NCBI GenBank assembly: GCA_045627885.1
Contig: JAZQOM010000066.1
Location: 8,673-72,672 of the forward strand
DNA length: 64,000 nucleotides
Source: Eubacteriales bacterium
Lineage (GTDB): Bacteria; Bacillota; Clostridia; Oscillospirales; CAG-272
Direction: 5' to 3'
Positions 51,081-64,000 of this stretch are shown here, in pieces (within the stretch, counting starts at the first letter, position 1; every line of letters starts with the position of its first letter). The position numbers and the translations under genes were made by a program. The notes under the pieces were generated by a model. The model had not been told where the DNA came from and did not search any database. It saw only the letters and a list, made by a program, of their open reading frames with translations.

Positions 51081-52223
51081 CTATTCTACAACAGTGCTGA
51101 ATATTCTCTTTCGGTCGAAGCTGCACAGAATCTCATAACTTATCGTTCCGACGGCTTCTGCAATCCTCTTTGCCGGAAGCGTTTCCGCTCCGTCGGAGCC
51201 GAATACAGTGGCGATATCGCCTACCTTGCAGTCTATATCCGAGACATCAACCATACACTGGTCCATACATATCTTGCCTAAAATCTTTGCACGCTTTCCG
51301 CCGATGAGCATATATCCCTTTTCCGACCATGCTCTCGGAAGCCCGTCTGCGTAGCCAATCGAAAGCGTGGCAACCGTCATATCGCGGTTTGCCTTAAATG
51401 TGCATCCGTAGCTGACTGTTTCTCCGCTTCTCAATGTGTGCAGATGTATCACCGAGCACTTCAAGTCCATCGCGGGCTTTAAGTTGGGGCCGCCCTCCGC
51501 TCCGTACAGTATAATGCCGGCTCTCACCATATCCATATGGCAGTACGGGAAGTTCACTATCGCATCGCTGTTGCATATATGGCGAGTCAGAGGCCCGATG
51601 CCGAGCTTTGCGAGCTTGTTTGTTATGGAAAGGAAGTTGCGGTACTGGAATGCGTTGTAAATATCCGTCTTTTTGTCGGAAACCGCAAAATGCGAGAAGA
51701 TACCTTCGATGGTGAAATACGGCAACCTTGAAACCTGAACTATCTGCGCCGCGGAAATCTGTATGTCGTCTGCGTTCTTTGCGGCAAAGCCGATGCGGTT
51801 CATGCCCGTATCGAGCTTGATGTGAACGCGAATTTTAAGCCCTTTTTCGCGCAACACGCCGGAGAGCTCCGTCGCGTATGCGTATGAATAGAGAGCCTGA
51901 ATAATGTCGTTCTGTGCAAGAAGCTGAGCGTCGTCCGGCTCTGTCCTGCCGAGCACGATGATATCGCCCGAAATGCCGTATTCGCGGAGCTCGAGCGCTT
52001 CTCCGACCGTTGCTACGGCAAACATTTCCGCGCCCGCCGCCTCGAGAGCCTTTGCCACTCTTTCGCTTCCGTGACCGTAGGCGTTTGCCTTTACTATGGC
52101 GCACACCTTGCAATCGTCACCGACGAGAGAGCGGACATATTTATAGTTGTGAACAATGTTGTCGAGGTTTACCTCCGACCATACACGCTTTGTACGAATT
52201 TCCAATTTTATCTGTCCTTTCAT
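51081..52223 (-). CDS. alr: alanine racemase
   Basis: PLP-lysine motif AIVKANAYGHG and full-length Alr features. Start set to the ATG at 52223, which forms an ATGA overlap with the upstream lipoprotein gene. Confidence 0.93.
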   Translation of the reverse strand: MKGQIKLEIRTKRVWSEVNLDNIVHNYKYVRSLVGDDCKVCAIVKANAYGHGSERVAKALEAAGAEMFAVATVGEALELREYGISGDIIVLGRTEPDDAQLLAQNDIIQALYSYAYATELSGVLREKGLKIRVHIKLDTGMNRIGFAAKNADDIQISAAQIVQVSRLPYFTIEGIFSHFAVSDKKTDIYNAFQYRNFLSITNKLAKLGIGPLTRHICNSDAIVNFPYCHMDMVRAGIILYGAEGGPNLKPAMDLKCSVIHLHTLRSGETVSYGCTFKANRDMTVATLSIGYADGLPRAWSEKGYMLIGGKRAKILGKICMDQCMVDVSDIDCKVGDIATVFGSDGAETLPAKRIAEAVGTISYEILCSFDRKRIFSTVVE

Positions 52224-52732
52224 TGACTTATCGCGGAAAATCCCGTGATTTCCGCTTTTATTCCGTCGGATATAATGAGAAGCGGAACTCCGTGCGAATA
52301 ATAAAGCAGATTTCCGCCGATATCGCATATCATACATTTTGCACCGTAAAGCTCCGACTTGTAGGGAGAAAGCTCTTTTTTCTCCTTTGCCGCGTCCAGC
52401 ACTCCGAGAAGCACATCAAGCTTTTGCACCGAGCTTTGCACAAGAGCTACGGTTTTTCCGCCGTACTGTGCGGAAAAAGAATCTTTATCCGCGCATATTA
52501 CCGTGCCGGCTATTTCTTCGGGAAAAGAAAGCGTTAATTCGTATGTGCTTTCCCCGTGCAGGAGCTTTCCTCCGAAGAGAGCACCGCCGTCGGCTGTACA
52601 CACATTGAATGTGCATTCATAATCGCTTGCAATATTATTACAAAGAGCGTCGATATTGTTTTTGTCAGCCGAGCAACCGGCAGAAAAAACAAGAAGTAAT
52701 GCCGATAGGCAAACAATTATTTTGCGGAACAT
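52220..52732 (-). CDS. hypothetical lipoprotein
   Basis: Lipobox LLVFSAGC. Translationally coupled to alr. Confidence 0.7.
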   Translation of the reverse strand: MFRKIIVCLSALLLVFSAGCSADKNNIDALCNNIASDYECTFNVCTADGGALFGGKLLHGESTYELTLSFPEEIAGTVICADKDSFSAQYGGKTVALVQSSVQKLDVLLGVLDAAKEKKELSPYKSELYGAKCMICDIGGNLLYYSHGVPLLIISDGIKAEITGFSAISQ

Positions 52733-52756
52733 ATAAACACCCCCGGGGATTATTGT

Positions 52757-53584
52757 TTATACTTCCTTTTTTACCTGTTTTATCGCTTCGGGAATCAAAT
52801 CGGCGGCAAGTGAGGGCAGAGCCGAAAGCTCCGTGAATTTTTCAGCCGCCATATCGCCGGCGAGCCCGTTCAGATATACGGCACAGATGGCGGCATCAAG
52901 CGCGGAAAGACCTTGCGAAGCAAACGAAGCGAGCATTCCGGCAAGCAAGTCTCCGTAACCGCCCTTTGCCATTCCGGCGTTGCCTGTCGGGCAGACATAC
53001 AATTCGCTTTTGTTTGCAATTATCGTATTGTGCCCTTTGAGAACAAGTGTGCACTTATTATTGCACGCAAAAATGCGTGCAGATTTCTCTCTGTCTTTCG
53101 GAAAAGCGCCCGTAAGCGTCTCAAATTCTCCCTCGTGGGGAGTGATAACCGTGTTTTCGTTAAGCTTTGAACTAAGTCCCGATTCTTTGATAAGACCGAA
53201 TGCGGATGCGTCGAGAACTACGGGACAATTTGCTGTACTCAATATATATTCGAGAATTTCCGCATTATGAACATTCTTCTCTACTCCGCAGCCGAAAAGC
53301 ACCGCTTTTGCCTTTACAAGATATTTTTCGATGTTCTCGATGCTCGACTCCGTAAATACGGGCTCATCGAGCTTTGCCTGCAATACGGGCAGGGCATACT
53401 TATCGGATGCCTGATACAAAAGCCCCGTTCCGCAGAGCAGAGCTCCTTTTGCGGCAAGAGCCGCGGCGCCCGTCATATATCTGCTTCCCGTTACGGCAAG
53501 CATTGTTCCGACGCTGTATTTATTTGCCGCGACATCGCGCTTCGGCAGAAGCTTTGCGACTGCGGCTCCTGTTATTTCGGTCAT
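52757..53584 (-). CDS. nnrD: ADP-dependent NAD(P)H-hydrate dehydratase (YjeF C-terminal/carbohydrate-kinase fold)
   Basis: KYSVGTMLAVTGSRYMTGAAALAA and GNAGMAKGGYGDLLAG motifs. Confidence 0.88.
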   Translation of the reverse strand: MTEITGAAVAKLLPKRDVAANKYSVGTMLAVTGSRYMTGAAALAAKGALLCGTGLLYQASDKYALPVLQAKLDEPVFTESSIENIEKYLVKAKAVLFGCGVEKNVHNAEILEYILSTANCPVVLDASAFGLIKESGLSSKLNENTVITPHEGEFETLTGAFPKDREKSARIFACNNKCTLVLKGHNTIIANKSELYVCPTGNAGMAKGGYGDLLAGMLASFASQGLSALDAAICAVYLNGLAGDMAAEKFTELSALPSLAADLIPEAIKQVKKEV

Positions 53585-54114
53585 TTCATCATATCCCTTG
53601 TTACAATCTTGGGATTATAGTATCTGAAGCATTCGATGGCTTTAGGCGACGCATTGAAATATACGGCGCATTGACCGAGTGCCGCGTCTTTATACACGAA
53701 TCTGTAAGCGTCTTCCGCGTCCGTACTGCTGCACCCGATTATTTTTTTGAATTCCGGAGAATCCTTTGCGTCTTTTGCACGCAAAAGTGATTGCACATCG
53801 CCTATTTTTGCTTCGCACAGACGCCTTCTCGTTTTCTTGGCATAGATGGCGTCAAGCTGAAAATATCCCGATACTATCGTATATTCGTATTCGATTCTGG
53901 TTTTCTCGAGAAGATACCAACACAAAAGCCCAACAAGAAGCCACAGAATCAGAAAAAGTTCGAAGAATATCCTTGCTTTTGCCGACACAAGCACACCGAA
54001 GACCGAAGCGAGTACAACGACACACCAGAGCGCTATTATGAGAATTCTCACGAGCACCGTTTTCGCGTCTGCTTTTTTGGCTACGAGATATTCGGTATAA
54101 TTAGCAAGTTCCAT
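53581..54114 (-). CDS. hypothetical membrane protein
   Basis: Two TM helices. Start at the ATG at 54114 (GGAGG 6 nt upstream). ATGA overlap with nnrD. Confidence 0.65.
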   Translation of the reverse strand: MELANYTEYLVAKKADAKTVLVRILIIALWCVVVLASVFGVLVSAKARIFFELFLILWLLVGLLCWYLLEKTRIEYEYTIVSGYFQLDAIYAKKTRRRLCEAKIGDVQSLLRAKDAKDSPEFKKIIGCSSTDAEDAYRFVYKDAALGQCAVYFNASPKAIECFRYYNPKIVTRDMMK

Positions 54115-54238
54115 TCCGTACCTCCGAATTGAGTGAATAATCGCGGGCAACCGAAAATATAATTTACCACGGATATCATTTTACTACACATTATTGCGAT
54201 TTGCAACAAAAATTATTAAAAAAGAGGTGCAAAAGAAA

Positions 54239-55297
54239 ATGAAGTTCTTTTTAACATGGATGTTTGCGGCGTTTGCCGCGATGGCGGTGCTTCTTTACGG
54301 TTCGGGACTATCCTCGGCGAAGGCGCAGACCGTGCAGACGGGCGCTTTTTCGGAGGATAATTTAACGGACAATTTCTTATCCGATTATTTGATTCCGCTT
54401 CCGCAGAGCTTAAAGAACGCCGCCGACACTGAAATTGCGGAGAAAAAGCTCGAAATTTCCGTCTACAATTCAAAGGCGAAAGCATATATGAATATGCCGC
54501 TTGATGAGTATCTTTACGGGGTATTGCTTGCGGAAATGCCGCAGAGCTTCGGCGACGAGGCGCTAAGGGCTCAGGCGGTGGCGGCAAGAACCTTAGCGGC
54601 GTACAAGCTCGAGTCAAAGCCGTCGGCCGAGCACAAAAACTCCGCCGTATGCACATCTTCCGGACACTGCATGGCGTATATCAGCCCCGAGGATTATGTT
54701 GCGGCGTCCGGTGACGCTTCGTATCTTCTCAGAGTAAAAGAAGCGGTGGATTCCACCACGGGAGAAATACTGACATACGGCGGAAAGCCGATAATGGCGG
54801 CGTTTCACGCAAGCTCTTACGGGCGCACGGAAAACAGCTTCGATGTATGGGGTGCGGACTATCCTTATCTTAAATCCGTATCTACGCCCGAGGAGAATTA
54901 TCCCGACATCGTAAAGAATCTCGTAACCGAGAAAGAGGTCACGGAGCTCGAATTTTACGATGCCGTATGCAAGGCGGACAAAGATGCGGCGATAACCGCG
55001 TCGTCCGTAAAAAAGGGGATTTCACTCATAAATGACGAATCGGGAAGGGTAAAAACCGTCTGCATAGGCGACACGAAAATAAAAGCTTCGGCACTGCGCA
55101 CCGCGCTTTCGCTCAGGAGCACCGATTTTAAGGTGGAATACAAAGACGGAAAGCTCATTTTCACCGTCCGCGGAAGCGGGCACGGCGTCGGAATGAGCCA
55201 ATACGGAGCGGCGATAATGGCTGAAAACGGGGACTCGTACAAAGACATTCTTGCGCATTATTACAGCGGCTCTGCGTTGTCGAAAACGGCATATTGA
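54239..55297 (+). CDS. spoIID: stage II sporulation protein D (SpoIID/LytB-domain lytic transglycosylase)
   Basis: YLYGVLLAEMP...ALRAQAVAARTLA, AAFHASSYGRTEN and GHGVGMSQYGA motifs. Start at the ATG at 54239 with a signal anchor. Confidence 0.9.
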   Translation: MKFFLTWMFAAFAAMAVLLYGSGLSSAKAQTVQTGAFSEDNLTDNFLSDYLIPLPQSLKNAADTEIAEKKLEISVYNSKAKAYMNMPLDEYLYGVLLAEMPQSFGDEALRAQAVAARTLAAYKLESKPSAEHKNSAVCTSSGHCMAYISPEDYVAASGDASYLLRVKEAVDSTTGEILTYGGKPIMAAFHASSYGRTENSFDVWGADYPYLKSVSTPEENYPDIVKNLVTEKEVTELEFYDAVCKADKDAAITASSVKKGISLINDESGRVKTVCIGDTKIKASALRTALSLRSTDFKVEYKDGKLIFTVRGSGHGVGMSQYGAAIMAENGDSYKDILAHYYSGSALSKTAY

Positions 55298-55470
55298 CGA
55301 TATCACTGCCGATTTATTATGCAAAAGCTGCAAAATTCGGGCGCAAAATTGACAAAAAGGATAAAATTTGTTCAAATAATTCGGGGATAATGTATTGCTT
55401 TTTTTCGCAAGCGGTGTTACAATATAAATGTATAAAACCATTTATGCAAAACAAAGAAGGAGAAAACACC

Positions 55471-58400
55471 ATGAAAAAAAGCACACGGATATTGAGTGCT
55501 CTTGTGGTTCTCGTTATGGTGATTTCCGTATTCGGAACATTCACCGCAAGCGCAGAGCCGGCGCTCACACTTATTTCCGCAGAGCAGGTAAGCAACACGC
55601 AGATAAAGCTCACCTTCTCCGAAGCGGTAACTCTCAACAAAGCCACCGCACCTTATGTTGCAATAAGATATTGCGGCGACAATTACACGCTTAAAAGCCA
55701 TAAAGGTACGGCTCTTCAGGTAGGCGGAACACTCGTGCTCGACGGCACGAAGGTCGGCTATGTCAACTTTACGGCAGGTCTTAACGAAGTGCTTTCCGGT
55801 ACATATTACGGCGAGGCATATAAAGATGCAGGCGTTTATCTCTGCATTGAGGGCAAGCCGATTGCCGAAGAAAAGGATGTAATCGGAGTTGTCGATAACA
55901 TCAAAGCGACCGGAAGCGGAGCTTTCCTGCAGGCAACTGAAGGCAAGTACGGAACCGGCGACGACAAGAAGCGCGACGGTTTTTACTGCAAAGTCACAAA
56001 GGCGGCTGAGCAGCTTACCGTTCATGTAAGCACGCTTGACGAGCTCAGAGAAGCCGTTACGACTAAGAGAGGCGCAAAGGTCGTTCTCGATGACGATATC
56101 ACCATGAATGTATTCTCCACCGAGTATGATTCCGCCAACGGCGTTGTTATCGTAAAGAACGGCTCCGGCACCGAGCTTGCAAAGATTGGTACGGGCGAAA
56201 AAGGTACAACTGCGGGCGCAATCATTTCCGGAAGCCTTGCTTCGCTTACTCCGTGGACTATGTTCCAGACACTCAACTACACACAGATAGACGGTAACGG
56301 ACACAGCATCAAGGGCTTGTTCGTAAACGGCACAAAGGATGCGGCATTCGTCAAGACGATTCAGCTCGGCGAGCGCATCGACAACCTTACATTTGACGGA
56401 GCACTCGTGCTCTGCGGCGGAAGCCCCAACGATGTAGCCGTTGTAGCCGAGGTACTCAAAGGCGACTGCTTTAACACTCATGTAAAGAACGCCATGGTTC
56501 TCAACTACGCAAACGGACAGTACGGCAAAACCGCAGGTCTTATCGGACATTCTGAGTCCACATCTCTTGTTCAGAACGAGCAGCACTGCCCGACTATTGA
56601 CTACTGCACGGCATCCGGTACGATTCTTACTTACGGAACATCGGGACTCAACTGCTCATCTGCCGGAATTCTCGGTCAGAACAAGGGCGGCAAAGTCATA
56701 AACTGCGTAAACTACGCACTTGTAAAGGTCATAAACGCGAAGGCGTACGGACTTTCCGGCTTGGTCGGAATTGTCGAAGCAACCTTCGGCTCACTCAACG
56801 ACAGTGACAAGAAGTATGACACAAAGGGAATTGCAAACGCTTATGTTCTCAACAGTGCAAACTACGGCATAACAGAAGCCGCAACGGGAAATGTCGGCGG
56901 AATCACCGGCTACATCGACGCATATTGGTCAACAAACAACTCCATAGTAATCAATAATGTTTACGGCGGCGGAACGACCAATCTCGGCGGCGCGATAAGC
57001 GGTACCACCAAGGACTGCTACGAAGTGCTTGCAAAGATTGACAAGATTGCCTACACGGTCGCTCTTTCGAGCAGCGCTACCGTCGGAAATCTCACTGCTG
57101 CTTTCAAGGCAAACAGCTTTATGGTACAGCAGTGCGCCATAGATAAGGCTCTCCCGATTCTCAACGGAAACGCCGGAAATATTGAGGGCGCATACGGCTG
57201 GAAGAAGGTCGGCGACTACATCGTTCCCGATAAGAGCACCGCTCCCACAAGCCCCGCAGTACCTCTTTCCGATTTGCTTCCCGAGGTAAACGATGTTCCC
57301 GATTACGAAAAGGACGCAGAGGTTGCACTCCTTTCTGCCGAGATTATCGCGGACGATTTGATTAAGCTCACATTCTCCGAGCCCGTCAAGCTTGTCGGAA
57401 GCGTTTACGCGGCAGTAAGATTCTGTAATGTTTCGGCAGACGGCGTTCCTTCACTCAGAAGCTATTCAAAGAACGGCGGCACAGAATATCTCCAGCTTGC
57501 TCCCACAAGCATAGCTTACGGCAAAGATACAAATGTAGCATACGCAAGATACGCAGACGGCGGACTTCTCGACAAGAGCGCATTCACATCACGCTGGGGC
57601 GTTCAGACCGAATTTACCGCGATGACATTCTGCTTCCAGGGACTTGCACACGCAAGCATTCCGAGCCCCGAGCTTGGCTATGTTGACAACATTCAGTCTG
57701 CCGACGGAACAAAAGCTCTTAAGGCTACGCCCGGTAAGATTGATACCGCAAACGGAGTGACCGACGGTGCTTATGTAATGCTCACAACCGCAGAAGACCC
57801 GATTGAGCAGATTAAGATAGTATCCGCAGAGCTTGCAAGCGCAAACACGATAAAGGTTAAATTCTCCGAGCCCGTTCAGCTTATAGGCAAGGTTTACGCG
57901 GCCATAAGATACTGCGACGAGGGCGGCACGATTCTCCAGTACACAAGCAATGACTATGACAAAGACGGAACAGCCGGCAAGGTAGGAAGAACTGCGATGC
58001 AGTTCGGCAACAACAATTTCGTAATTGATTCCGAAGACAGCAGCTGCGCAATCTGGACATTCAGCGATAACGAAAAGGCTGTACAGCACACGCTTATTGA
58101 AGCTCTTGCCGGAACGGCATGGGGCGAAGAGGGCAAGAGCAAGCATCCCTTCTTCTGCATAGAGGGATTGGCTCATGCTTCCATAACCGCTCCTCTTACG
58201 GGATATGTTGACAACATTAAGGCTCTCGACGGAAACGGACTTCTCAAATCTCTCAAGGTTAACGCAGATGGAATAACCGACGCGGCAGCCTGTGTTGTTC
58301 CCCCGCACGAGCATACATTTGCGGAAGAGTGGAGCTACAACGACGACGCTCATTGGCACGCTTGCACACTTGAAGGCTGCGAGGCGAGAAAAGATGAGGG

Positions 58401-58656
58401 CTCACACGAGTTTACGGGAAATTCCTGCGAATGCGGCAAGACGCAGGAGGGCGGATATACAGCCGGAGATGTCGACAACGACAGCGATGTCGATGCGGAC
58501 GATGCAATATATCTGCTTTATCATGTATTCTTCCCCGCAAAGTATCCCGTATTGCAGAATTGCGACTTTGACGGAAACAGCTCCGTTGAAGCGGACGACG
58601 CGATATATCTGCTCTACCATGTATTCTTCCCCGCAAAGTATCCTATCGGAGAATAA
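55471..58656 (+). CDS. large secreted surface protein: three Big_5-like modules, a GLUG/beta-helix core, a Cys/His module and a C-terminal dockerin-like module
   Basis: Start at the ATG at 55471 (GAAGGAGA RBS, signal peptide ...TASAEPA). GLUG-like repeats TAGLIGH, SAGILGQ, LSGLVGI and VGGITGY. The C-terminus has two EF-hand-like loops, DVDNDSDVDADD and DFDGNSSVEADD, each followed by AIYLLYHVFFPAKYP. Confidence 0.75.
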   Translation: MKKSTRILSALVVLVMVISVFGTFTASAEPALTLISAEQVSNTQIKLTFSEAVTLNKATAPYVAIRYCGDNYTLKSHKGTALQVGGTLVLDGTKVGYVNFTAGLNEVLSGTYYGEAYKDAGVYLCIEGKPIAEEKDVIGVVDNIKATGSGAFLQATEGKYGTGDDKKRDGFYCKVTKAAEQLTVHVSTLDELREAVTTKRGAKVVLDDDITMNVFSTEYDSANGVVIVKNGSGTELAKIGTGEKGTTAGAIISGSLASLTPWTMFQTLNYTQIDGNGHSIKGLFVNGTKDAAFVKTIQLGERIDNLTFDGALVLCGGSPNDVAVVAEVLKGDCFNTHVKNAMVLNYANGQYGKTAGLIGHSESTSLVQNEQHCPTIDYCTASGTILTYGTSGLNCSSAGILGQNKGGKVINCVNYALVKVINAKAYGLSGLVGIVEATFGSLNDSDKKYDTKGIANAYVLNSANYGITEAATGNVGGITGYIDAYWSTNNSIVINNVYGGGTTNLGGAISGTTKDCYEVLAKIDKIAYTVALSSSATVGNLTAAFKANSFMVQQCAIDKALPILNGNAGNIEGAYGWKKVGDYIVPDKSTAPTSPAVPLSDLLPEVNDVPDYEKDAEVALLSAEIIADDLIKLTFSEPVKLVGSVYAAVRFCNVSADGVPSLRSYSKNGGTEYLQLAPTSIAYGKDTNVAYARYADGGLLDKSAFTSRWGVQTEFTAMTFCFQGLAHASIPSPELGYVDNIQSADGTKALKATPGKIDTANGVTDGAYVMLTTAEDPIEQIKIVSAELASANTIKVKFSEPVQLIGKVYAAIRYCDEGGTILQYTSNDYDKDGTAGKVGRTAMQFGNNNFVIDSEDSSCAIWTFSDNEKAVQHTLIEALAGTAWGEEGKSKHPFFCIEGLAHASITAPLTGYVDNIKALDGNGLLKSLKVNADGITDAAACVVPPHEHTFAEEWSYNDDAHWHACTLEGCEARKDEGSHEFTGNSCECGKTQEGGYTAGDVDNDSDVDADDAIYLLYHVFFPAKYPVLQNCDFDGNSSVEADDAIYLLYHVFFPAKYPIGE

Positions 58657-58691
58657 TTACCTCGAAAACGCATTGATAAGGTAGGACGATT

Positions 58692-59459
58692 ATGAAAAGA
58701 TTTACAGCGGCACTTGCCGCACTGATACTTATAATATCCCTTGTTCCGTTTGCGGCTTTTGCCGCAAACGGCAAGGCAACCATGAGCTCCGCTGCCGCGG
58801 ATGCCGGAAAGAGCGTTACGCTTAAAGTGACGCTTTCCGGATTCGGAAAGTTCCAGAGCGGCTCCATAGAGTTTACTTCTCTTCCGAGCGGAATAAGCAT
58901 CAAGGACGGAAGCTGGATTTACGATGAGTCAAACGAGCCCTCCATCAAGGGCTTCCAGAAAAAAGACAAATGCGGAGTATTCAGCTACGAAGACGACACA
59001 GACTTAAACGGAGATATTTTTGAGGTCGTTTTAGATATCGGAAAAGATGTAAAAGCCGGAAAATACGAAGTAAAGTTCAATATGCAGTTTATGAAGAACA
59101 ACGGCGATTATGTCTCCGGCACCATGCAGAGCGGTTACATCACCGTAAACGGAGCAACAACTCCCGATACCGAGCCGGACACTCCGAGTGATGAGCCCAC
59201 CGATGAGCCCACTGATGAGCCCACCGACGAGCCCACTGACGAACCCACCGATGAGCCCACCGACGGACCCACCGATGAGCCTACTGATGAGCCTACTGAC
59301 GAGCCCACCGATGAGCCCACGGGTGATGAGAAGAACGAAAAGTCGGACGACAAGAAAAATGACGGACTTCTCCCGATAATACTCATATCGGTTGCTGGCG
59401 TCATAGCACTTGCGGCAATCGCATATTTCGTAATATCTCTCATTAAAAAGAAAAAATAA
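58692..59459 (+). CDS. membrane-anchored cohesin-like protein with (PTDE)n stalk
   Basis: Signal peptide. A ~130-aa beta-rich domain (GKSVTLKVTLSGFGKFQSGSIEF...GDIFEVVLDIGKDVKAGKYEVKF), a PTDE repeat stalk, a TM helix and KKKK. Lies 35 nt after the dockerin-like gene with no terminator between them. Confidence 0.65.
   Translation: MKRFTAALAALILIISLVPFAAFAANGKATMSSAAADAGKSVTLKVTLSGFGKFQSGSIEFTSLPSGISIKDGSWIYDESNEPSIKGFQKKDKCGVFSYEDDTDLNGDIFEVVLDIGKDVKAGKYEVKFNMQFMKNNGDYVSGTMQSGYITVNGATTPDTEPDTPSDEPTDEPTDEPTDEPTDEPTDEPTDGPTDEPTDEPTDEPTDEPTGDEKNEKSDDKKNDGLLPIILISVAGVIALAAIAYFVISLIKKKK
59190..59321 (+). repeat. 11 tandem 12-nt units (GATGAGCCCACC and variants) encoding (DEPT)n linker
   Basis: Read directly from the sequence. 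The repeat is in frame within the 58692-59459 CDS. Confidence 0.95.
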
Positions 59460-59476
59460 CGGCATATAGTTTTTTG

Positions 59477-59512
59477 AGCCTTTGCACAAAAATCGTGCAA
59501 AGGCTTTTTTTT
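59477..59512 (+). terminator. intrinsic terminator after the cohesin-like gene
   Basis: 11-bp stem AGCCTTTGCAC / GTGCAAAGGCT followed by a T8 run. Confidence 0.85.
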
Positions 59513-59524
59513 GATTAAAATAGC

Positions 59525-59553
59525 TTGACTAATATAAAAAACAGTTATATAAT
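59525..59553 (+). promoter_or_regulatory. sigma-A-type promoter for the 59597 surface-protein gene
   Basis: TTGACT, a 17-nt spacer, then TATAAT. Confidence 0.6.
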
Positions 59554-59596
59554 AAAAATGAATATATGTATATTTATATCCGAAAGGAATTTGATT

Positions 59597-62080
59597 ATGA
59601 AAAAGCTCAGGAGGGTTCTTGCGGTATGCCTTGTGTTGGCAATTACCGTTTTAGTACTTCCGACGGACTTCTATGAGTTCGACGCGGATGCGGCAGCCAT
59701 ATGGAACGGTTCGGTTGCGGGTTCGTTTGCAGGCGGAAACGGAACATCGTCTACCCCGTACATTATTTCTACCGGAGAACAGCTCGCACGCCTTTCAAAG
59801 CTTGTCAATGACGGAAATGCAAGCTTTGTTTCGGCATACTTTGTTTTGAACGCCGATATCAGACTTAACGATGTATCGCAGTACGACAAGTGGCATTCCC
59901 CCGAGGGAACCAACGCCGGCGGCGAAGCAACTACATCGGACGAAGACTGGTTCGGTACGGAAACGGGCAACGGCTCTGTTACGCCCGCACGCAATTGGAC
60001 GCCTATCGGCTCTTCGGCGCATCCCTTTAACGGAAACTTCAACGGAAACGGTCACTGCATAAGCGGACTTTATTGCTCAAGCGAAAGCGGCTATGCCGGA
60101 CTTTTCGGAAAGAACACCGGTACGGTAAGCAATGTTTCCACCATTAAAAGCTATGTAATATCAAGCGGAAATTATGCGGGCGGAATCATCGGCTACAACT
60201 CCGGCACTGTTTCCAAGATTGCAAACGCGGGCAAGGTCTCATCGACAAAGAATTTTGTCGGCGGACTTATCGGATATAACACGGGCAGTGTTTCCGACGG
60301 CGCATCCTACGGAAGCGTAACGGGCAAAGACAATGTCGGCGGATGCATCGGCGCGCATTACGGAACAAATACGGCCACAAGACTTCTCGCAACAGGCTCT
60401 GTTAAAGGCGTAAGCGCAGACGGCGCGGTTGTGGGATTCAGCGAGAATGTAAGCAAGGTCACCTCCTCATATTATAAGTCCACCATCGGAGCAACCGACG
60501 AGTCGGCAACATCAAAGACAGATTCCGTTCTTAAAAACGGCACGGCATTTTCGGGATGGTCGAATTGGACATTTACAAGCGGAAAATATCCCGAAATCAC
60601 AGGACTTCGCCTTGAGATATCTCATACATTCAGCAATAGCTGGTCAAGCGACGCAACGAATCACTGGCACGCCTGCATAGACGCAGACTGCACGGAAACA
60701 AGCGGACTTGCGGCTCACAGCGGCGGCACCGCAACCTGTTCGGCAAAGGCGGTATGCTCTGTCTGCGGCACAAGCTACGGAAATTACGGCGCACACAATC
60801 CGACTCATTATAATCGCGTCGAAGCGACACATACCGCACCCGGTAACATCGAGTATTGGTACTGCGCAACCTGCGGAAAGTATTTCTCAAATTCAACCTG
60901 CACAACACAGATAACGCAGGCGCAGACAGTTATAAGTCAGATTCCGCACAGCTTCTCGAATGTATGGTCAAAGGACGCGACGAAACACTGGCACGAATGC
61001 TCTTGCGGAGCTATTGACGGCGAAGCAACTCACAGCTTCACAAATGACTGCGACGCCGATTGTAATGTCTGCGGCTACATAAGAACGATAACTCACAACT
61101 ATCAGTGGGTTAAGGACGAGAGCGGCCACAAGCAGGTTTGCTCGGTCTGCGGCGATACGATAAACGAAGGTACACATACATATTCAAGTGCGTTTGACAC
61201 AAACTGCGATGACTGCGGATATGAAAGGCAGCTCGGAACGGTAAGCGGCACTTGCGGCGACGGTGTAACATACGAATACAATACGGTATCCGGCGCGGTT
61301 ATCATAAGCGGAGAGGGAGAAATCACACAGACTCCGTGGAACGAAAGAGCGACGGGAATCAAGAGCGTAACGATATCGGAGAAAATCACATCCGTTCCGT
61401 CGGGAGCATTTTCCGGATGCACGGCTCTTAAAACCGTATATGTTTACGGTAATCCCGAAATAGCGGCAAACGCATTTACCGGTTGCACGGGCGCAGAATT
61501 CTACGGCTGGCACTATACCGATATATACGATTTCTGCGGCGAGAACAGCTATAAATTCACAGGACTTGAGAGCTTCGAAATAACACATTTCCAAACAAAC
61601 ACAAATGAGCCCACAAAGTTCAGAGTTATCGCCGAAATGGTTCACACGGAAAAGTACAATACCGCCGGATTTGAGATAACGCTTAACGGCACGGACGGCG
61701 CGGGACACGATTTCAACAATTCTTTCCAGGAAAAAACGATAAAGACTGTATATAAGCTCCTGCACGCAACAGACAAAAACGGCAAGGACATCACGCTCGG
61801 CGCAGAGCAGGAAGACGGATATCTTTCGGCACTTATAATGAACGGTCCCGGTAATGCGGCTATGGGCAGTGACGCAAAGCTCGTATTTGCATTCACTCCT
61901 TATGTAACAAATATATATTCGGGCGAAAAGATATACTTTGATACCATCAAGTTTGTATATGAAAAGGGCGAATCTGCTCCCGTCATCAGACTTTATGACC
62001 CCGCTATCGATGAGAAGATTCCGTTCCACGCCGACGACGGTGAGGGAGAGGGCGAAATCATCGACTGGAATGATATGTAA
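59597..62080 (+). CDS. large secreted GLUG-motif surface protein with Cys/His-rich modules, BspA-type LRR and a C-terminal beta domain
   Basis: Start at the ATG at 59597 (signal peptide MKKLRRVLAVCLVLAITVL). GLUG repeats YAGGIIGYNSGTV, FVGGLIGYNTGSV and NVGGCIGAHYG. HWHxC modules lie at nt 60620-61230. Confidence 0.75.
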   Translation: MKKLRRVLAVCLVLAITVLVLPTDFYEFDADAAAIWNGSVAGSFAGGNGTSSTPYIISTGEQLARLSKLVNDGNASFVSAYFVLNADIRLNDVSQYDKWHSPEGTNAGGEATTSDEDWFGTETGNGSVTPARNWTPIGSSAHPFNGNFNGNGHCISGLYCSSESGYAGLFGKNTGTVSNVSTIKSYVISSGNYAGGIIGYNSGTVSKIANAGKVSSTKNFVGGLIGYNTGSVSDGASYGSVTGKDNVGGCIGAHYGTNTATRLLATGSVKGVSADGAVVGFSENVSKVTSSYYKSTIGATDESATSKTDSVLKNGTAFSGWSNWTFTSGKYPEITGLRLEISHTFSNSWSSDATNHWHACIDADCTETSGLAAHSGGTATCSAKAVCSVCGTSYGNYGAHNPTHYNRVEATHTAPGNIEYWYCATCGKYFSNSTCTTQITQAQTVISQIPHSFSNVWSKDATKHWHECSCGAIDGEATHSFTNDCDADCNVCGYIRTITHNYQWVKDESGHKQVCSVCGDTINEGTHTYSSAFDTNCDDCGYERQLGTVSGTCGDGVTYEYNTVSGAVIISGEGEITQTPWNERATGIKSVTISEKITSVPSGAFSGCTALKTVYVYGNPEIAANAFTGCTGAEFYGWHYTDIYDFCGENSYKFTGLESFEITHFQTNTNEPTKFRVIAEMVHTEKYNTAGFEITLNGTDGAGHDFNNSFQEKTIKTVYKLLHATDKNGKDITLGAEQEDGYLSALIMNGPGNAAMGSDAKLVFAFTPYVTNIYSGEKIYFDTIKFVYEKGESAPVIRLYDPAIDEKIPFHADDGEGEGEIIDWNDM

Positions 62081-62310: not shown

Positions 62311-62409
62311 TTAGATGTATAATAATCTTATTATAGGCGTAATTGGCTATATTGGGATTTATAAATACTGAAAATCTTATTGCTGAAATTCAGCAGAAAG
62401 GACAAAAGT

Positions 62410-64000
62410 ATGAAGAGAATACTTGCGTTTCTTTGCGCAGCGGCTCTGATTGCGACCATGTGTACATTCTACATGGGCGAAGTTGCGACCGCTACAGCAG
62501 AAGCGCCCGTAGAAGTCACTGATTATGCAGAGCTTCGCGAAGCGCTCAATTCGGGCAAGAGTGTCAACATCATGAATGACATTGACTGCCAGCCGAATTA
62601 TGAAATGTCTTTCGACAAAGATACCGGCATTATTACATATACCGGCATTGCGGGCACTTCAGCGGCGAAGACCATCACAGTCAACACCGGCGACAGTGAC
62701 CATACACTCATCGGTGATGTTGTAGCCATTGACTGGGCAGATCAGCCCCTCGAGGGACTTCCCGATGACTTCAATGTCTGGGGAACACTTACTTCCAACT
62801 ACTACAAGGGTGTAGTAGAAGGTAACAACAAAACAATCAAAGATTTTTACGGCACTGACCCCTTCGTTACCTTCCTCGGTTACACAGACGGAACTTACGC
62901 TTCGATTCAAAATCTTAATTTTGAGAACGCAGTTGTAAACTCCACTCAGACAAGAGCGGGTATTGTCGCAAGAATTTCTTACGCTGACATCGTCAATGTC
63001 AATGTAAAGAACAGTGTTGTCATCAATACGATGACAAACGCTAACAGAACGGGCGGTATCGTAGGCTACGCGCTCTCTGCAGTTGGTCAGGGTACATTCA
63101 AGACCTCGATGACACAGCAAGAGTATGACACCGCTTACGCCGCAAATGTTGAAAAGCGCGCTCCTCGTCTTGACCATGTAACATTTGACGGTGCGGTATA
63201 CTCCGGATATAAGCCGACTACAGCACCCTCCGGCGCAGGCGAAAGCACGGGCGGACTTGTAGGTTACGCAGTAGGTATTGATATGACAAACTGCGCAAAC
63301 TACGGTACTGTCAAGATTCTTACTCCCAGCGGCATTACACATTATGGCGCTGCTGGTCTTATCGGAATTATCGAGAACACCCAGAAAACATTTACTACAA
63401 ATCAGCCTTATTATGGTGAAGTTGCTGTAACAAGAACAATCAGGCTTGTTAACTGCGCAAACTACGGAAGAGTTTACGGCGGCGCTAATAAAAATGCTTC
63501 TATCGCGGTTGTAAATATCCCCAATGTTTCCGACAAGCAGGAAATCATAATCGGAAACATTTACACAAGGTCTGACTATGTAAAGAAATCCGACGCCACC
63601 GGAACGGTTAACTCGTTCGCTGTTGTTGCAGGTCCTTCACGAGAAACGAGAACGATATCGGTTGCAGGAGCTGACATGACATTGTCGTCAATTCCCGCTG
63701 ATTATCGTGTATTCAACCTTGCCGTAACCGATCTCGGAGATTCGTTCGCCGCTAACCCCTATTACTACTCCAACACCGGTGTAGATAACAAGGACGGCAA
63801 AGCTGTTGACGCAACATGGAAGAAGAACGAAGCAACCGCTACAACGGCTGCAAGATTCAACGACTATGCATTTGCAAACGGCTACACTCTGTGGACAGAC
63901 AACATGGAGTTTGATACAAGCTTTGTTGCTCTCGAAGGCGAAGGCACGGAAGCTTCTCCCTATGTTGTTACCACTGCAGAAGAGCTCAACTACCTCGCAG
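62410..64000 (+). CDS. third GLUG/beta-helix-type secreted surface protein, 3' end beyond the window (absent from ORF track)
   Basis: I translated this by hand. ATG at 62410 after AAAGGA. The frame stays open to nt 64000 with no stop. Signal peptide MKRILAFLCAAALIATM. GLUG-like TGGIVGYAL, TGGLVGYAVG and AAGLIGII. GTEASPYVVTTAEELNYLA parallels GTSSTPYIISTGEQLARLS of the 59597 protein. Confidence 0.8.
   Translation, partial: MKRILAFLCAAALIATMCTFYMGEVATATAEAPVEVTDYAELREALNSGKSVNIMNDIDCQPNYEMSFDKDTGIITYTGIAGTSAAKTITVNTGDSDHTLIGDVVAIDWADQPLEGLPDDFNVWGTLTSNYYKGVVEGNNKTIKDFYGTDPFVTFLGYTDGTYASIQNLNFENAVVNSTQTRAGIVARISYADIVNVNVKNSVVINTMTNANRTGGIVGYALSAVGQGTFKTSMTQQEYDTAYAANVEKRAPRLDHVTFDGAVYSGYKPTTAPSGAGESTGGLVGYAVGIDMTNCANYGTVKILTPSGITHYGAAGLIGIIENTQKTFTTNQPYYGEVAVTRTIRLVNCANYGRVYGGANKNASIAVVNIPNVSDKQEIIIGNIYTRSDYVKKSDATGTVNSFAVVAGPSRETRTISVAGADMTLSSIPADYRVFNLAVTDLGDSFAANPYYYSNTGVDNKDGKAVDATWKKNEATATTAARFNDYAFANGYTLWTDNMEFDTSFVALEGEGTEASPYVVTTAEELNYLA

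Follow-up and report, generated by a model that had tools for sequence, protein, structure and literature searches.

The question raised by this locus is whether a large secreted protein and the small membrane protein encoded directly after it are a plug and its socket. The window analysed here is the whole 64,000-nucleotide (nt) stretch (64 kb) of Eubacteriales bacterium contig JAZQOM010000066.1, and the two genes in question, here called gene A and gene B, lie near its end. Cohesin-dockerin pairs are best known from cellulosomes. A preliminary description of this stretch, made from the letters alone, had proposed that gene A carries a dockerin, that gene B carries a membrane-anchored cohesin, and that the two form a self-contained surface-display pair. 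With a probability of about 0.68, we read genes A and B as a two-gene cohesin-dockerin surface-display cassette of an uncultured, spore-forming Clostridia bacterium of the gut or rumen type. The features on which this reading turns are given below (aa, amino acids; relatives and their loci carry P and L numbers throughout).

55471..58656, + strand: gene A, predicted secreted cargo protein of 1061 aa (open reading frame; identical to P0169)
58456..58653, + strand: dockerin module of gene A, 66 aa (sequence, PDB, profile and fold matches)
58468-58548 and 58564-58644, + strand: the two Ca-loop plus helix segments of the dockerin (motif reading)
58481-58547 and 58577-58643, + strand: direct DNA repeat encoding the dockerin halves, 67 nt, 87% identity, spacing 96 nt
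58692..59459, + strand: gene B, predicted membrane-anchored single-cohesin protein of 255 aa (open reading frame; relatives share the architecture)
58692..58763, + strand: predicted signal peptide of gene B, MKRFTAALAALILIISLVPFAAFA (read from the sequence)
58764..59156, + strand: cohesin domain of gene B, a beta domain of approximately 130 aa (profile and fold)
59160..59362, + strand: acidic Pro/Thr linker, approximately 11 PTDE units plus a charged spacer (Pfam PT, 61.5 bits)
59367..59456, + strand: hydrophobic helix LLPIILISVAGVIALAAIAYFVISLI, 26 residues, plus KKKK, without LPXTG (sequence)

The C-terminus of gene A reads DVDNDSDVDADD-AIYLLYHVFFPAKYP and then DFDGNSSVEADD-AIYLLYHVFFPAKYP, a duplicated segment in which a 12-residue EF-hand-like calcium loop, with ligands at positions 1, 3, 5, 9 and 12, precedes the helix AIYLLYHVFF, the two segments being spaced by 32 aa. 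The ligands are D/D/D/D/D in the first loop and D/D/N/E/D in the second, and the 17-residue helix segments are identical to each other. At the DNA level, the 53-nt near-identical direct repeat reported earlier is present, with four differing positions that are all synonymous, but it is only the core of the longer, 67-nt repeat listed above. A degenerate pattern for the duplicated helix had a single match in the window and none in any of 100 shuffles, and a six-frame motif scan of the 64 kb found no other dockerin-like pair. Searching all PDB sequences with the gene A tail by phmmer yielded eight matches, every one of them a dockerin (best E 4e-5), and with an 11-sequence profile of the gene A dockerin subtype (A3), approximately 25 solved dockerins ranked first, led by 2y3n_B (1.8e-8) and followed by CelS, Xyn10B and others. 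In addition, the AlphaFold2 (AF2) model of the module, with a mean predicted local distance difference test score (pLDDT) of 95.1, shows the dockerin fold of loop-helix motifs with two antiparallel helices (residues 14-25 and 46-57), and its top 32 Foldseek matches in the PDB were dockerins only (template-modelling score, TM-score, 0.57-0.72; root-mean-square deviation, rmsd, 2.0-4.6 Å). Judged by PDB search, subtype profile and modelled fold, gene A ends in a dockerin, as had been proposed.

The symmetry of this dockerin extends to its relatives. Across 123 dockerins of the subtype, the halves within one protein share 74% identity, compared to 53% for the same half between proteins, and the corresponding values for the helix part are 86% and 63%; by this comparison of sequences, the two halves evolve in concert. 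Symmetric dockerins bind in two orientations, for example in 2ccl and 2vn5. Both of these structures are among the structural matches of the gene A model, and given the identical halves and the known two-orientation binding, either half of the gene A dockerin can probably engage a cohesin (a dual binding mode).

Searched exhaustively with HMMER, 1.84 billion representatives yielded only 48 relatives of gene B at E <= 1e-3, and its subfamily is therefore small and divergent. A word-indexed homologue search with the globular domain alone yielded nothing, phmmer with the domain against the PDB gave no match, so that a family profile was needed, and with the full-length protein as query the results were swamped by matches to the PT linker. 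The Pfam Cohesin model matched 36 of the 54 members of the gene B family (best E 3e-26), and a 34-sequence profile of the gene B cohesin subfamily (A2) picked out dozens of solved cohesins and hardly anything besides, with the ScaB cohesins 5m2o_A (4e-8) and 5aoz_A (6e-8) of Ruminococcus flavefaciens as the best matches, aligned over nearly the full domain. The AF2 model is all-beta (pLDDT 95.9; predicted TM-score 0.88) and has the nine-stranded flattened beta-sandwich (jelly-roll) characteristic of cohesins. Its top 45 Foldseek matches in the PDB were cohesins only, among them 5n5p (E 9e-10, TM-score 0.78) and 5aoz (TM-score 0.79), and the matches include CohA2 of Clostridium acetobutylicum and the non-cellulosomal cohesin of Archaeoglobus fulgidus. 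By family profile, AF2 fold and Foldseek, the beta domain of gene B is a cohesin, bearing out the first assignment.

The remainder of gene B has the layout of a membrane anchor. The signal peptide and transmembrane helix were recognized by eye and by a simple hydrophobicity rule. Between cohesin and helix, the PTDE linker of approximately 70 residues is encoded with a 12-nt DNA period in 13 overlapping copies, and is presumed to be a wall-spanning stalk. No [LIVS]PxTG-like motif occurs in the last 50 residues, and Pfam and NCBIfam scans detected neither an S-layer homology (SLH) domain nor a C-terminal sorting-signal family (compare the OlpB, SdbA and Orf2p type). Approximately 22 of 53 gene B relatives share the ending of hydrophobic helix and basic tail. 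Together with a cleavable signal sequence at the N-terminus, this layout would make gene B a type I membrane protein with its cohesin outside the cell, and the transmembrane anchor without LPXTG or SLH that had been described is what the gene B sequence, Pfam and NCBIfam all indicate.

Two further features join the genes.

58657..58691, + strand: spacer between genes A and B, 35 nt, with a Shine-Dalgarno-like AAGGTAGGA at 58678-58686
59476..59516, + strand: intrinsic terminator after gene B, with a 12-bp stem, 6 GC pairs and a T-run

The Shine-Dalgarno-like site lies 5 nt upstream of the gene B ATG. No terminator-like site was found on the + strand between A and B, the terminator after gene B is the strongest in the region, and the region's best promoter-like site (11/12) lies at 59525-59553, before the next gene; A and B therefore appear to be one transcription unit. 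The gene coordinates, the motifs, the 35-nt spacing and the absence of an internal terminator had all been given correctly in the preliminary description.

To follow this gene order from the cohesin side, the contigs of ten distinct transmembrane-anchored gene B relatives were inspected (10 loci). In six of these (L004, L005, L006, L124, L126 and L001), the gene directly upstream of the anchor ends in a two-segment dockerin, and the gap between cargo and anchor is 13-75 nt in the five loci whose upstream stop lies inside the locus; the L005 locus holds just the last residues of its upstream dockerin gene. The upstream gene of L004 is a collinear homologue of gene A (28% identity over approximately 1040 alignment columns, E 6e-80) that shares with it the central region, the repeated Ig-like modules, the Cys/His repeats and the dockerin subtype, and the L004 anchor, P0123, shares 37% identity with gene B. 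The L006 cargo has the dockerin subtype of gene A on a body that is unrelated to gene A, with a sub-threshold match to CE2_N, the carbohydrate esterase 2 N-terminal domain (25.8 bits against a cut-off of 27.9). As L006 carries a different cargo, the cassette mechanism is independent of the function of gene A. The upstream dockerin of L001 belongs to a different subtype, and that of L126 (2-2104) does not stand at the extreme C-terminus, approximately 60 extra Asn/Ile-rich residues following it. The upstream dockerin gene is absent from the remaining four of the ten loci (L003, L122/L123, L125 and L002/L007). Two tandem genes for transmembrane-anchored cohesin proteins stand at L002 (3783-6248) and L007 (1-2079); the stalk is of the Cys/His kind in one protein and of the PT kind in the other, no dockerin gene lies nearby, and the arrangement is kept in two independent samples.

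Seen from the dockerin side, the gene order recurs more widely. A degenerate DNA pattern of approximately 44 bits (DA[ILV]YLL twice at 32-aa spacing), scanned over one genome per species, matched at least 114 stretches. The counts in this paragraph hold among the matches listed. All of these are from metagenome-assembled genomes (MAGs) of uncultured gut or rumen Clostridia, namely Faecousia and other Oscillospiraceae, Acutalibacteraceae, 'Ruminococcus sp.', unclassified Eubacteriales and a few labelled Lachnospiraceae or Faecalimonas. They comprise at least 101 C-terminal dockerins of the subtype, whose signature is DA[IV]YLL..F/L.P..YP, in 67 species genomes. Seventy-one of the dockerin genes were evaluable, having at least 1.5 kb of downstream sequence, and in 31 of these (44%) a gene for a cohesin of the gene B family, by hidden Markov model match, lies directly downstream. 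Twenty-five of the 31 adjacent anchors have a signal peptide, one cohesin, a stalk, a transmembrane helix and a Lys-rich tail, and a sortase motif was found in 0 of these 25. At least one cassette is present in 31 of 51 genomes. With adjacency in 31 of 71 genes and 6 of 10 loci, the pair is therefore a recurrent unit and not a coincidence of this window, and the co-occurrence in relatives on which the original proposal depended is there from both sides.

Some relatives carry more elaborate versions. In P0121, P0136 and P0164, a cohesin of the gene B type and a dockerin of the gene A type reside in one protein. In L014 (Clostridia bacterium RGIG2706), three consecutive genes encode a dockerin cargo, a cohesin-dockerin protein and a cohesin protein, the middle one being an adaptor-like, 700-aa BspA-type leucine-rich repeat (LRR) protein that unites a cohesin with the dockerin type of the cargo. 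As predicted from these gene products, the system is layered in some relatives and forms small networks.

In the mechanism that we propose, both proteins would be exported via Sec. Gene B would be retained in the membrane through its C-terminal helix, the KKKK tail lying in the cytoplasm, and its acidic Pro/Thr stalk would present the one cohesin beyond the membrane. Gene A would be released and then captured non-covalently and in a calcium-dependent manner, its symmetric C-terminal dockerin plugging into the gene B cohesin, and the outcome would be a large non-glycoside-hydrolase protein, probably adhesive or enzymatic, shown on the cell. The anchor would be the conserved part and the cargo the exchangeable one, and the gene B cohesin may accept further proteins with dockerins of the subtype that are encoded elsewhere in the genome. 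A conserved socket with exchangeable cargoes is the most economical reading of these observations. Of the window's genes, gene A is clearly the client to be expected, and it may be the sole one. From module identity and gene order, we infer that A and B bind each other, and the two make up a real cassette of cargo and probably cognate anchor; the high adjacency, together with the retention of both cargo and anchor at low identity in L004, speaks for a dedicated pair.

Several observations weigh against this reading, most of them in favor of gene B being a general-purpose anchor for dockerins encoded elsewhere, with gene A as one of many clients, or docking mainly on some other cohesin, for instance that of a scaffoldin encoded elsewhere, and their adjacency the product of a variable surface-protein island. 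Gene B has its closest relative in P0122 (40% identity), whose locus, L003, lacks genes A, C and D, the latter two being the genes that follow gene B in the window. L003 (1-6604) is syntenic with window positions 51081-59459, the shared order being alanine racemase, a 170-aa open reading frame, Carb_kinase, a 189-aa open reading frame, SpoIID and the cohesin-transmembrane gene, so that the L003 anchor directly follows SpoIID and is itself followed by a Peptidase_M32 gene; its alr gene is approximately 71% identical to that of the window at the nucleotide level, the best among the fetched genomes, none of which is close. Among the matches listed, 56% of the evaluable dockerin genes of the subtype stand without a cohesin gene beside them. 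Moreover, genomes with 4-6 dockerins of the subtype show near-identical dockerin helices (in such multi-dockerin genomes, dockerin identity is 74% within a genome vs 56% between genomes) and few adjacent anchors, which points to one anchor serving several clients. The fusion proteins and the L014 gene chain are multi-component networks of the kind that such an anchor would imply, and Sca2 of Ruminococcus bromii provides a precedent, a single cohesin that binds the dockerins of amylases, peptidases and LRR proteins (PMC4611034). "Self-contained" was accordingly too strong a term for the pair, as L003 has the anchor without the cargo and the genomes with 4-6 dockerins mostly lack adjacent anchors. 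Nevertheless, adjacency at 44% of the listed genes and 6 of 10 loci is far above any plausible background, the gaps of a few to approximately 100 nt suggest co-transcription, L004 keeps cargo and anchor together despite their 28% and 37% identity, and the 64-kb window has only one dockerin and one cohesin. On balance we consider a purely general-purpose anchor unlikely, although it deserves to be taken seriously.

Doubt could also attach to the anchor and to the modules themselves. Linker, hydrophobic helix and basic tail have the tripartite shape of a Gram-positive sorting signal, and two family members (P0130 and P0161), though only two, have IPKTG or IPATG before the helix, as if the hydrophobic segment and KKKK were a signal cleaved by a sortase-like or other enzyme, which would link the protein covalently to the wall in the manner of ScaE and Sca2. 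We regard this as improbable: gene B lacks any LPXTG-like motif, nothing is conserved upstream of the helix in approximately 22 relatives or in 25 cassette anchors, NCBIfam and Pfam recognize no sorting-signal family, and the same layout is read as a transmembrane anchor in PMC11557425 and PMC13463774. Taken at face value, the Pfam scores would leave room for look-alikes, the cohesin-like domain being an Ig-like module of a generic kind that acts as a spacer or binds a ligand, and the two EF-hands doing no more than stabilizing gene A in a calcium-dependent way. The gene A tail reaches only 10.5 bits (E 0.74) on Dockerin_1 (PF00404), far under the cut-off of 22.9, so that the tail does not pass the dockerin profile that the preliminary description had named as a check; the subtype, now defined, is nearly missed by the Pfam model. 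The cohesin profile (PF00963) gives a divided answer, the gene B domain alone passing at 25.5 bits over profile positions 3-139 of 139, but the whole protein falling just under the cut-off of 24.1 at 22.8 bits, and identity to solved cohesins is only 12-19%. Against these scores stand the family profiles, whose matches are, with almost no exception, solved cohesins and dockerins, dozens of them, the agreement of both folds at TM-scores of 0.6-0.79, and the recurrent adjacency of precisely these two module types, which is hard to explain without an interaction. That both modules are look-alikes seems to us very improbable indeed, and the reading of A and B as cargo and cognate anchor is the one carried forward here.

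The body of the cargo is less readily named than its dockerin. Its further features are as follows.

55471..55554, + strand: predicted signal peptide of gene A, MKKSTRILSALVVLVMVISVFGTFTASA (read from the sequence)
56014..57240, + strand: central G-rich repeat region of gene A, aa ~182-590 (also conserved in the L004 homologue)
58306..58440, + strand: Cys/His-rich motif of gene A, HEHTFAEEWSYNDDAHWHAC... (common to gene C and many cassette-anchor stalks)

In order, gene A consists of the signal peptide, three Big_5-like modules, the G-rich central region, the Cys/His motif and the C-terminal dockerin. Big_5 is the sole Pfam call above cut-off (25.4 bits); three such repeats are visible in the alignment with the L004 homologue, of which one passes. 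The central region, of approximately 400 aa, gave only sub-threshold hints of Glug and of Pectate_lyase_5 or pectate-lyase-like families, and is possibly the body of a beta-helix or GLUG-like adhesin or enzyme. The GLUG label given to the cargo at first does not hold at Pfam cut-offs (PF07581, 10.6 bits against 20.5), and an adhesin or protease-like role for gene A is a guess. Family scans of gene A found no match to a glycoside hydrolase, carbohydrate-binding module or carbohydrate-active enzyme family, and a word-indexed search of 5.8 billion clusters found no close relative of its body besides itself (P0169). The sole PDB sequence match of the Cys/His motif is 9qa6_A, an 'IgA protease' (E 9e-6). 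The exact gene A sequence is present in a collection of 15 billion proteins (P0169, NCBI). Gene B, gene C and the Carb_kinase protein (58692-59456, 59594-62077 and 52757-53581) have no exact match in that collection, which suggests that it covers the source genome only in part.

The Cys/His motif, approximately 40 aa long (H.F..W..D...HWH.C..C....H), is present as a single copy in gene A and in four or more copies in gene C (60600-61250), and in multiple copies it makes up the stalk between cohesin and transmembrane helix in most cassette anchors (L009, L018, L020, L041, L058 and others). It matches no Pfam family and may be an undescribed Zn-ribbon-like extracellular spacer module. Gene C (59594-62080) encodes a large secreted protein with G-rich repeats, Cys/His motifs and a hint of BspA-type LRR, in which no dockerin, transmembrane or sortase signal was seen (Pfam Glug 9.4 bits against 20.5). 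Gene D (62407-64000), which runs off the window, likewise encodes a large secreted protein, resembling the central region of gene A (Pfam Glug 17.7 bits against 20.5). Genes A, C and D make up a surface-protein island that is missing from the syntenic L003. Two small open reading frames on the minus strand (52220-52732 and 53581-54150) belong to no Pfam family and are conserved in position in L003. Other genes of the window are those of a core chromosome (DnaE, class A penicillin-binding protein, ABC exporter, alanine racemase, SpoIID). Horizontal transfer was considered on the basis of composition and set aside, there being no break, with a GC content of 0.47-0.52 over the A-B unit. The one cohesin and one dockerin of the 64-kb window are not accompanied within it by the multi-cohesin scaffoldin or the dockerin-bearing glycoside hydrolases of a cellulosome or amylosome.

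Taken further, the unit of X-dockerin and single-cohesin-stalk-transmembrane anchor may be a distinct, widespread and undescribed modular cassette, in which each exchangeable cargo comes with its own dedicated socket and the lineage-specific symmetric dockerin subtype DA[IV]YLL..F.P..YP; this broader proposal is tentative, and we give it somewhat less than even odds. If true, it would constitute a sortase- and SLH-independent route of surface display in Oscillospiraceae, Acutalibacteraceae and related gut Clostridia, the partners of transmembrane-anchored cohesins could be named directly, and a library of orthogonal cohesin-dockerin pairs would be possible. The locus and its recurrence (44% of evaluable genes and 31 of 51 genomes, among the matches listed) already provide a concrete and testable assignment of partners by gene adjacency. 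Should binding be confirmed, the display of large adhesin-like proteins without sortase or S-layer in uncultured gut anaerobes would be explained, and new orthogonal plug-and-socket parts for surface display would become possible.

Among known systems, the nearest to gene B are single-cohesin proteins with a C-terminal transmembrane helix. These were described in silico, first as possible non-SLH anchoring scaffoldins with unclear partners from H. luporum, C. cibarium and Lachnoclostridium sp. MSJ-17 (PMC11557425, 2024), and then from Ruminococcus difficilis, R. sp. HUN007, JE7B6 and zg921/zg924 (PMC13463774, 2026). The premise that cohesin anchors attach only through SLH domains or sortase signals is outdated in light of these reports, and the novelty claimed for the arrangement was overstated, given this transmembrane-anchored class and the sortase-anchored precedent of cttA-scaE. 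By its sequence, gene B has the same layout, and the locus belongs to this recently described class of transmembrane-anchored single-cohesin display systems, with which it also shares gut or rumen Clostridia as hosts and dockerin proteins that are mostly not cellulases. It differs in that gene B stands in a two-gene unit with a dockerin cargo, whereas the papers report no such adjacency (neither 'adjacent' nor 'operon' occurs in the text of PMC13463774), and in that the cassette recurs in MAGs of Oscillospiraceae, Acutalibacteraceae and unclassified Eubacteriales with a distinctive dockerin subtype. In many uncultured gut Clostridia, the gene for a transmembrane anchor often comes immediately after that for a cargo bearing a dockerin of this subtype, an arrangement not found in the literature searched.

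The closest functional parallel, and a precedent for adjacency going with cognate binding, is cttA-scaE in the sca cluster of Ruminococcus flavefaciens (PMC5301203, with Rincon et al. 2007 cited there). There, too, a non-enzymatic, adhesin-type dockerin protein and a single-cohesin surface anchor share one locus, CttA and ScaE bind each other, and the type III cohesins of this species are the closest solved cohesins to gene B. However, ScaE is linked covalently to the wall by sortase (LPXTG) and also anchors the whole cellulosome through ScaB, whereas gene B has a transmembrane helix, and CttA carries an X-module-dockerin dyad with insertions in place of the plain symmetric dockerin, without X module, of gene A. 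Sca2 of the Ruminococcus bromii amylosome (PMC4611034) is likewise a single-cohesin anchor that serves non-glycoside-hydrolase dockerin proteins (peptidase, LRR) in addition to enzymes, and acts as a socket for general display, its host being a gut Clostridia bacterium that is not cellulolytic; it has a sortase signal and clients encoded by unlinked genes, unlike gene B with its transmembrane helix. Finally, the gene A dockerin resembles the type I dockerins of C. thermocellum Xyn10B (2ccl/1ohz) and C. cellulolyticum Cel5A (2vn5) in its two symmetric Ca-loop plus helix segments of approximately 22 residues. The subtype profile aligns with these over their full length, and their folds lie within 2-2.8 Å rmsd of the gene A model, but in gene A the helix leads on to a conserved motif of aromatic residues and Pro, LLYHVFFPAKYP, a feature that type I dockerins do not typically have.

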